In this document: positions 61,301-64,000 of the stretch, piece by piece
Numbering within the stretch: position 1 is the stretch's first letter
Layout: every line of letters starts with the position of its first letter
Assembly: GCF_002854065.1 (NCBI RefSeq)
Contig: NZ_CP024150.1
Origin: Escherichia coli
GTDB lineage: Bacteria > Pseudomonadota > Gammaproteobacteria > Enterobacterales > Enterobacteriaceae
Reading direction: 5' to 3' (one strand)
Length of the DNA: 64,000 bases
Position numbers: made by a program

Positions 61301-64000
61301 CATAGCAGGTCAGATCCGGCAGAGACTGAATGTCGGAATAACTGACCAGCGTCTGACGCTCCATATCCTTACCGGTCGATACCCCGTCACGTACCGGGTC
61401 AGCACCGTAGGAATACTGCTCGCTGGCTTTCAGGTGCTCTTTCTCACCAATTTCACCGGCAGCGAACTCTGCAATCTTATGGCTGGGAGAACGGAAAAAG
61501 GCACGGGTGTTCATGACGTCAAACAGCGTGGCCGCCGCTTTCTCACCGTAGATATCTTCCAGCTGGGCATAGGACTGGATACCAAACACATAACAGCCAC
61601 CGAACTTACGGGCTTCCGGCAGGATCTCCACCAGGTCCGGCAGTTTGTGTAACGTGGGTAACTCGTCACAGAAAAACCACACACGACGGTTACGGTTTTC
61701 TCCCATTGCCAGCAGACCACGAATGGCAATGGACAGCCACATGGAGATCACCGGCTTCAGGGAGGCATGGGTGAACGGTCATAAATCACCACCATATCAC
61801 CGCGCTGACGGGCGTAGTTGGCCAGACGACGGATATCCTCACAGGAGCATCGGGAGGGCGCCCCTGTGGCGCCCGTTCCCCGCTGCCTGTGGGCTGTTCA
61901 CCGCGCCCGGTAACGGGTCAGGCCGACCGTGGAATACCGCAGCCGTCGTCTTTTTGACGGCAAGGCTATGCCGCGAAAGCGGCTTGAAGGGCGCTCATCA
62001 GAAAAGGGCGACGGGCTGGCGTACACTGTCACCGACGCCAGCCGGGAGCGGTAAAAGCGCCCGTCCCGTGCCCGGCCGGACGCGGGACACTGACCACAGG
62101 CAGCGTTCCTGCCGCGCCGCGTCAGCCGGCGCAGTAAAAAGAGGAGCCCGGCGACATCTTTTGTTATCCGCCAAACAAAACCCAAAAACAACCCATACCA
62201 AGCCCAACAAAACACCAAAACAAGACAAATAATCATTGATTGATAGTTAAAATGGGGTAAACTTGACAAATAAACCCATTTAAAGCCCAAAACACACCCA
62301 AACAAACACCAAAAAAAACACCATAAGGAGTTTTATAAATGTTGGTATTCATTGATGACGGTTCAACAAACATCAAACTACAGTGGCAGGAAAGCGACGG
62401 AACAATTAAACAGCACATTAGCCCGAACAGCTTCAAACGCGAGTGGGCAGTTTCTTTTGGTGATAAAAAGGTCTTTAACTACACACTGAACGGCGAACAG
62501 TATTCATTTGATCCAATCAGCCCGGATGCTGTAGTCACAACCAATATCGCATGGCAATACAGCGACGTTAATGTCGTTGCGGTGCACCACGCCTTACTGA
62601 CCAGTGGTCTGCCGGTAAGCGAAGTGGATATTGTTTGCACACTTCCTCTGACAGAGTATTACGACAGGAATAACCAACCCAATACGGAAAATATTGAGCG
62701 TAAGAAAGCAAACTTCCGGAAAAAAATTACATTAAATGGTGGGGATACATTCACAATAAAAGATGTAAAAGTCATGCCTGAATCTATACCGGCAGGTTAT
62801 GAAGTTCTACAAGAACTGGATGAGTTAGATTCTTTATTAATTATAGATCTCGGGGGCACCACATTAGATATTTCTCAGGTAATGGGGAAATTATCGGGGA
62901 TCAGTAAAATATACGGAGACTCATCTCTTGGTGTATCTCTGGTCACATCTGCAGTAAAAGATGCCCTTTCTCTTGCGAGAACAAAAGGAAGTAGCTATCT
63001 TGCTGATGATATAATTATTCACAGAAAAGATAATAACTATCTGAAGCAACGAATTAATGATGAGAACAAAATATCAATAGTCACCGAAGCAATGAATGAA
63101 GCACTTCGTAAACTTGAGCAACGTGTATTAAATACACTCAATGAATTTTCTGGTTATACTCATGTTATGGTTATAGGTGGTGGCGCAGAATTAATATGCG
63201 ATGCAGTAAAAAAACACTCACAGATTCGTGATGAACGTTTTTTTAAAACCAATAACTCTCAATATGATTTAGTTAACGGTATGTATCTCATAGGTAATTA
63301 ATGATGGACAAGCGCAGAACCATTGCCTTTAAGCTAAATCCAGATGTAAATCAAACAGATAAAATTGTTTGTGATACACTGGACAGTATCCCGCAAGGGG
63401 AACGCAGCCGCCTTAACCGGGCTGCACTGACGGCAGGTCTGGCCTTATACAGACAAGATCCCAGGGCCCCTTTCCTTTTATGTGAACTGCTGACGAAAGA
63501 AACCACATTTTCAGATATCGTGAATATATTGAGATCGCTATTTCCAAAAGAGATGGCCGATTTAAATTCTTCAACAATCATTCAGTCCTCTTCACAATCG
63601 GAGCAAAAAAGTGATGAGGAGACAAAAAAGAATGCGATGAAGTTAATAAACTAATTAAATTATGATTGAGTTTCCTTTATCCACTATCAGGCTGGATAAA
63701 GGGAACTTAATCAAGTTATTTTATTGCCAGTCATTACATAAAATAAACAGGGTCGTTATTATGAAATAATTTCACGGAACTTATGAAAAAGTGGCTCCAA
63801 TAATCAAAATTGGTGAGTTCGCAATGTCTGGCAATAACGTTTTTGATGGGTTATTTGCCAGTCCGGATCGCCAGAATACGCATACTGTCAGGGCTGGGAA
63901 ACGATGCTCTCGGTTATTTACTGAAAAAAGGTGATATCACTGACGCAGAATACCGGGCGGCCCTGGAAATCGATCCCCGGCAGTCGATTTCTGTACACCT

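Follow-up and report, generated by a model that had tools for sequence, protein, structure and literature searches.

The closest described relatives of the element treated here are single-stranded-DNA (ssDNA) promoters of IncF and IncI plasmids. In Wen et al. (NAR 2025, PMC12672017) the hairpin located 5' of the methylase gene M.EcoGIX in pESBL is a class 3 ssDNA promoter; the evidence for this class consists of zygotic induction seen by donor-depleted RNA sequencing (RNA-seq) and a start mapped by 5' rapid amplification of cDNA ends (5' RACE), and the class is given as conserved in F. In a 2026 preprint (10.64898/2026.01.09.698686) 'ssp3' of F serves as an ssDNA promoter, equal to ssp2 in strength and lacking roadblock activity. 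We analysed a stretch of 64,000 nucleotides (nt) from Escherichia coli (contig NZ_CP024150.1, assembly GCF_002854065.1; hereafter the window), in which a GC-rich segment separates a remnant of traD from parC. We consider it very probable that this segment, at 61848-62158, is a class 3 ssDNA promoter ('ssp3') copy of the IncF/IncI leading region, orphaned by a microhomology deletion. Identity, contiguity, copy distribution, junction, folding and the non-conserved coding frame were computed in this analysis; the single-strand promoter activity and the mapped start are taken from the literature on the pESBL copy, which is 95.6% identical.

The copy in pESBL-EA11 (IncI, NC_018659.1) lies at 54446-54762 (4447-4763 of excerpt L008) and ends 20 bp before the ATG of the M.EcoGIX methylase, and the window segment matches this hairpin with 95.6% identity over 319 bp. 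The F copy (53829-54150), just 5' of the F methylase gene, shows 96.0% identity over 322 bp. To the right, from position 61834 on, the window shows 100% identity and collinearity with intact plasmids, among them pJJ2434_2 (excerpt L003) and pSE74-1357 (excerpt L002). There the segment has parC/parM on one side and on the other the leading region, whose first gene is a leftward DUF1281 gene. The DUF1281 gene is followed by a methylase gene, by antirestriction genes of the ardB/klcA type and by more genes of the leading region, with no change of strand. Both plasmids carry two direct copies of the element, one at 6001-6327 beside parC and one at 4703-5019 5' of the methylase (excerpt coordinates); the latter, 95.9% identical, stands 1.3 kb further left, in the space from the DUF1281 gene to the methylase. 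In plasmids of IncFII type one copy directly adjoins parC on its left, which accounts for the presence of the element here. The first-pass annotation of this DNA had taken the segment for a probable remnant left by the event that deleted the tra operon; this did not hold, as the segment belongs to the native backbone: it adjoins parC/parM without a break in more than 5,000 plasmids, intact ones included, and F and IncI plasmids have it as well. It had also proposed alignment with F traD as the sign that nothing foreign had been inserted. No literal alignment of that kind was found, but the absence of a foreign insertion is correct all the same, since the segment aligns with F leading-region DNA.

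At least 5,000 plasmid records contain the 316-bp core with an identity of 90% or higher, often at 2-5 places each. A scan with 20-mers of 100,044 species genomes gave five copies with 95-99% identity along with two chance 20-mer matches in marine genomes, and a tblastn search with the methylase for divergent homologues returned at least 5,000 records, near-identical. Other arrangements exist as well. In other IncF plasmids, among them Klebsiella p48896_1 and CRKP_29 unnamed2 (1501-1815 of excerpt L020 and 1501-1814 of excerpt L022), a single copy is flanked by the methylase and by parC, and in some parM plasmids the DUF1281 gene adjoins parC with a gap of 272 bp, leaving no room for a 310-bp copy. 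The occurrence of two-copy and single-copy arrangements is the pattern expected from recombination between copies, or from an ancestral single-copy state. It suggests that ssp3 copies may in addition serve as substrates for recombination, by which the border of the partition locus with the leading region is reshaped.

The G+C content of the segment is 0.686 across 61836-62150 and 0.677 across 61820-62160, to be compared with 0.553 for the traD remnant, 0.337 for parC and 0.456 for the whole window; the high-GC DNA that had been noticed between the traD remnant and the AT-rich parC repeats is therefore real. A three-way alignment of the window, traD and pJJ2434_2 places the end of traD-derived DNA at 61833, not at 61820. 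The residual 5' leader of the deleted DUF1281 gene, recognised by comparison with pSE74-1357, occupies 61836-61847 (- strand). The core of the GC-rich hairpin element, which is the parC-proximal ssp3 copy, extends from about 61848 to 62158 (+ strand), as delimited by the alignment to the pESBL and F copies, by the boundaries in a paralogue alignment and by the fold. The repeat search placed parC at about 62171-62323 (+ strand), as two blocks of 11-12-bp repeats on either side of the parMR promoter, and parC, with parM (62339-63301) and parR (63301-63654) contiguous, is the native right-hand neighbour of the element.

Folds were mined as in PMC12672017, with 300-nt windows, DNA energy parameters and a criterion of -75 kcal/mol, which gave 2,548 windows in the 64 kb. 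Positions 61851-62150 form the most stable 300-nt fold of the whole stretch, at -92.2 kcal/mol (GC-corrected z of -5.4; window mean -35.2, standard deviation 11.8), and theirs is the only one of the 2,548 windows below -75 kcal/mol. The 327-nt element reaches -96.6 kcal/mol on the + strand (z of -4.8). Being alone below this limit, and kept in thousands of plasmids with an identity of at least 94%, the GC-rich segment is not a chance feature.

The family alignment comprised 14 copies, 13 of them distinct, with a mean identity of 97%. A trunk helix of 12 bp, in which 61881-61892 pairs with 62094-62105 (both + strand), is found in the minimum-energy as well as in the extended conformer, and 10 of its 12 pairs are invariant in the 13 distinct copies. 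The small GC hairpin in the leader (61852-61880, + strand, drawn from the family alignment) contains the only compensatory pair of the family, 61860/61870, where G:C is replaced by A:T. Predicted pairs are kept in 96.7% of the alignment cells, and several changes preserve pairing through G:T. For the extended single-hairpin conformer, which is 5.4 kcal/mol less stable than the minimum, 97.0% of the cells are paired, hence the alignment fits the two alternative folds equally. The variation within the family is compatible with a structure, with little statistical power. A search of Rfam 15 gave no family at the gathering score, the only hit being the Erse small RNA at 15.5 bits against 138 (E of 0.07). 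The motif GGCGACATC(C/T)TT at the distal end (62147-62160) is invariant in all 14 copies. The same motif is seen near the distal end of Frpo'4 and Frpo*3 (Samuel et al. 2024, insect-gut metagenome), which are otherwise unrelated candidate single-strand promoters. Homology to the Frpo'/Frpo* candidates of that study was considered and rejected, as only the terminal motif of 13-20 nt is in common.

The strand on which the element would act was read from its relatives. In the F record the published Frpo/ssiD sequence, which we take as the ssi-active strand, is found on the minus strand, and the F copy of the GC-rich element matches the window in reverse. It follows that the + strand of the window corresponds to the transferred strand, which is the template for the leftward genes. 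pJJ2434_2 has the orientation of the window, and in it the class 1 and class 2 elements point the same way as both class 3 copies.

As to the exact -35 and -10 boxes, we infer them from a weight-matrix scan, where the best match on the + strand is CAGAAA (61999-62004), N17, TACACT (62022-62027), with a score of 5.1 and a weak -35 (3/6). These predicted sigma-70 boxes (61999-62027, + strand) are invariant in 14 copies. Their geometry is plausible only in the extended conformer, 5.4 kcal/mol above the minimum. There they are placed on the 3' arm and read in the direction of the hairpin base; the -35 and the spacer are largely duplex, and every base of the -10 is paired except A62023 and T62027. 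The second and last bases of the -10 are the positions that sigma-70 flips out of the helix during open-complex formation. Given the predicted boxes, the start would tentatively be at template position 61918-19 or thereabouts, with a leader of about 90 nt. That this combination represents the boxes of the class 3 promoter is possible, though we regard it as rather doubtful.

In pSE74-1357 and pJJ2434_2 the element is placed in the leading region directly 5' of the DUF1281 gene, and in F and pESBL directly 5' of the methylase; in the window a frameshifted traD fragment follows instead. Judged by its sequence, the window copy is a member of ssp3 by descent that lies out of context. The large deletion responsible took the 5' part of traD, the rest of the tra operon, oriT and the whole leading region, and stopped 7 nt short of the DUF1281 start codon. 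With the endpoint so close to this codon the DUF1281 Shine-Dalgarno sequence was kept; its GAGGA is the complement of 61836-61840, and in pSE74-1357 the DUF1281 ATG is found 7 nt past this motif. By the three-way alignment the junction is at 61834-61835, a TA common to both parents within an imperfect 7/8 match TA(A/T)CCTC, and the context of the crossover is GGATAACCTC in traD versus AATTATCCTC in the leading region. The earlier suggestion that a deletion removed the tra operon was borne out, and its endpoint lies at the left edge of the segment. The same alignment gave no target-site duplication at 61834/35, only the 2-bp microhomology join. The tra deletion is a plain microhomology event and was not mediated by an insertion sequence (IS) or an integron.

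The traD remnant itself has a second, independent deletion. Its 3' part (60660-61772, - strand), a pseudogene labelled in RefSeq as 'incomplete; missing N-terminus', shows 97.4% identity to traD of NZ_CP014112.1 (1328-2474 of excerpt L009) and is followed at 61772-61773 by the junction of an internal deletion of 500 bp (2475-2974 of the same excerpt missing) with TG microhomology. This deletion shifts the reading frame, so that the retained 5' traD fragment cannot be translated into the 3' part. The short middle fragment (61773-61833, - strand; 2975-3043 of the excerpt, 98.6% identity over 69 bp) is 61-69 bp in size, 61833 being its last traD-specific base. Near the codons for the TraD C-terminus a perfect 9-bp tandem array, (TGGCTGTTG)x16.9, is located on the + strand at 60939-61090 and encodes a Gln/Pro repeat. 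Over the aligned stretch the window has 27 bp more of traD than NZ_CP014112.1, probably due to a different repeat count. Next to the remnant, traI (55390-60660, - strand) is intact.

The mechanism we propose is as follows. The entering transferred strand would fold the GC-rich sequence of about 310 nt into a large imperfect hairpin. According to PMC9849209 and PMC12672017, together with our own reasoning, the hairpin would recruit the sigma-70 holoenzyme, with transcription directed towards oriT and into the establishment genes. In IncFII relatives the gene downstream would be the DUF1281 gene, and at the second copy the anti-restriction methylase. Synthesis of the complementary strand would then abolish the hairpin and shut the promoter off. 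In this plasmid an illegitimate microhomology deletion joined the middle of traD to the DUF1281 leader at 61834/35. With both the operon and the F oriT lost, a relic is the default reading, and we infer that the promoter is inactive in this plasmid, the orphan most probably being a functionless relic.

It should be noted that several points weigh against the assignment to class 3. The ssp3 of 10.64898/2026.01.09.698686 is probably class 3, judged from the parallel numbering, and promoter activity of the parC-proximal copy would be an extrapolation from paralogues with about 96% identity. Both strands fold about equally (-96.6 kcal/mol on the + strand against -93.9 kcal/mol on the complement), hence folding alone does not identify the active strand. 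The mean identity of 97% leaves covariation almost no statistical power. A strict sigma-70 consensus scan gave no site in the element, and it missed the parMR promoter too. Further, the candidate -35 matches at 3/6 positions only, and since weight-matrix scoring is also poor on the ssi sequences of ColIb-P9, box calls made in this way are unreliable.

Some further light on the locus comes from the record NZ_AP027791.1, an IncFII/FIA plasmid from a human faecal isolate that encodes a cholera-toxin-B-like enterotoxin subunit. The window is collinear with this record at 99.7-100% identity, and the junction of the large deletion was present in one of 72,556 plasmid records and in one of 5,426 complete E. 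coli genomes, both being NZ_AP027791.1. As the window is without the 1,070-bp IS30-family (ISApl1-like) copy which this record carries at the position corresponding to 51874/51875, the window represents an earlier form of this plasmid or a sibling of it. Further, NZ_AP027791.1 has a leading region of IncI type and an oriT-nikA-like segment, both collinear with pESBL and oriented like it (95% and 75% identity). No IncI tra/trb transfer genes are annotated in NZ_AP027791.1, hence it looks mobilisable and not self-transmissible, despite being typed as 'conjugative, MPF_I'.

This raises the possibility that the orphan is still active: transfer of the window + strand from the retained IncI-type oriT, with its relaxase, would let the hairpin fire on entry and give a transient burst of leftward transcription through the traD remnant, traI, traX and finO. 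The pESBL-like orientation of the IncI-type segments speaks for it, as does a nick-like motif, CACATCCTG/T, on the minus strand of NZ_AP027791.1, which is the strand equivalent to the window +. No intrinsic terminator was predicted between the element and traD, and traI, traX and finO are intact on the - strand. If this were so, an F-type single-strand promoter would be re-used under a different transfer system. However, the IncI-type oriT/nikA-like region, at about 71.5-71.8 kb of NZ_AP027791.1 (11543-11775 of excerpt L006), is outside the window, the lack of annotated IncI tra/trb genes means that a helper plasmid would be needed, and the element would enter late, some 84 kb after the nick. 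The first frame downstream is the frameshifted traD fragment, and there is no apparent benefit of TraI or FinO without the F oriT. Also, the nick consensus behind the CACATCCTG/T call is one we presume. We consider continued activity unlikely.

A coding function is less probable still. The first-pass annotation had seen no coherent open reading frame (ORF) in the segment. Taken literally this fails, for stop-free frames cross it in both directions, as an ORF of 195 amino acids (+) and one of 135 amino acids (-), and RefSeq places the hypothetical protein WP_002430945.1 at 61898-62191 on the - strand, a coding sequence which PGAP calls here and in most relatives. In substance the claim stands, as the frame is not conserved among the copies and the segment is effectively non-coding. 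A 1-nt indel (alignment column 242, about 62074), where the window and F read KDVAGLLFLLRRLTRRGRNAACGQ while pESBL and pJJ2434 read GCRRAPLFTAPADAARHKRCLW, puts the N-terminal halves in different frames, the start codons vary between annotations, and stop-free frames are to be expected at 69% G+C. Pfam gave no credible match for the ORF, the one sub-threshold hit having an E of 0.09 and 13.5 bits against a cut-off of 27 bits. With the frame not conserved and no credible Pfam match we rejected the reading that the segment encodes the small protein WP_002430945.1, which we find highly improbable. Annotation pipelines call one or two 'hypothetical proteins' within the hairpin in most IncF/IncI plasmids, with varying starts and frames (as in excerpts L003, L004 and L008).

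The segment abuts the junction and its G+C is sharply unlike both flanks, features that could point to a leftover of a foreign mobile element (a transposon or integron end, or a recombination site) which caused the tra deletion. Against this, parC normally has this DNA beside it in intact, tra-proficient plasmids, F and IncI plasmids contain it too, and the join is a 2-bp microhomology without target-site duplication. The recognisable recombination site or element end that had been suspected was not found: among 12 terminal inverted repeats of IS elements and transposons the best matches had 44-71% identity and none reached 75%, which is a weak test. A 7-nt attI core was found within one mismatch, which is uninformative at such length. 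The contiguity with parC in intact plasmids was decisive for rejecting a foreign element, together with the presence in F, and the chance that this reading is right seems negligible to us. Finally, that the element acts on parC as double-stranded DNA, for instance as a component of the centromere or by protecting the parMR promoter as an insulator or terminator, is equally hard to credit, for in spite of its constantly adjoining parC in IncFII plasmids it lacks the 11-bp parC repeats and any predicted terminator-like site, occurs away from parC in F and IncI plasmids, and could not fit as a 310-bp copy into the 272-bp gap between DUF1281 and parC of some parM plasmids.

Elsewhere in the window a second hairpin-prone segment was detected at about 6130-6400, directly 5' of ardA (5619-6125, - strand). 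Its fold, with -70.8 kcal/mol and a z of -3.0, ranks second in the window after GC correction. The segment shares 66-67% identity with the class 2 promoters of pESBL (5' of klcA and of ardA) and has its strand polarity in common with the ssp3 copy; we regard it as a probable divergent class 2 single-strand promoter belonging to a second leading-region module.

Reading the segment as an orphaned class 3 promoter has some practical consequences. The block in which thousands of IncF/IncI plasmids have one or two hypothetical proteins annotated would be a non-coding regulatory hairpin. Class 3 promoters would be duplicated in IncFII, with the copy at the parC end a landmark for leading-region boundaries and deletions, and orphan copies may serve as natural controls for hairpin function outside conjugative entry. 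The class of element is already published; what we add is a small extension, the parC-proximal paralogue and the two-copy IncFII arrangement, neither of which is mentioned in the portions of the cited papers used here.

Compared with the other known systems, the element is akin in several respects to Frpo, ssiD and ssi1-3, the class 1 elements (Masai & Arai 1997; Bates et al. 1999; Couturier et al. 2023, PMC9849209), each a GC-rich hairpin of about 330 nt on the transferred strand of the leading region that is a promoter only when single-stranded, and like ssp3 repeated within one leading region. The class 1 elements differ from it by a lack of detectable sequence homology and by another fold topology. 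Membership of class 1 (Frpo) was rejected as F ssiD and ColIb-P9 ssi1-3 gave no blastn match in the window (E<1e-6), while the same queries find their targets in F, pJJ2434_2 and NZ_AP027791.1. The class 2 elements, located 5' of klcA/ardB and ardA (ssp2), resemble it in their leading-region context and presumed mechanism and have no sequence homology to it; for ssp2 a replication roadblock is reported in 10.64898/2026.01.09.698686, and ssp3 is reported there not to act as one. The parC of the R1-type parMRC system adjoins the element, and the two are always together in IncFII plasmids, but the element is without the parC iterons, is GC-rich and not AT-rich, and occurs without parC in F and IncI. 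The nearest system remains class 3 of pESBL. The window copy and the pESBL element are alike in their identity over about 320 bp (95.6-96.0% for the pESBL and F copies), in polarity and in their strong fold, and the intact relatives of the window copy share with pESBL the position directly 5' of a leading-region gene. The outer 15 nt of the window copy, with leader and Shine-Dalgarno sequence, and its distal end differ from the methylase copies, and it is the parC-proximal paralogue, which in intact IncFII plasmids stands ahead of the DUF1281 gene and which here is left with the operon and the F oriT deleted.

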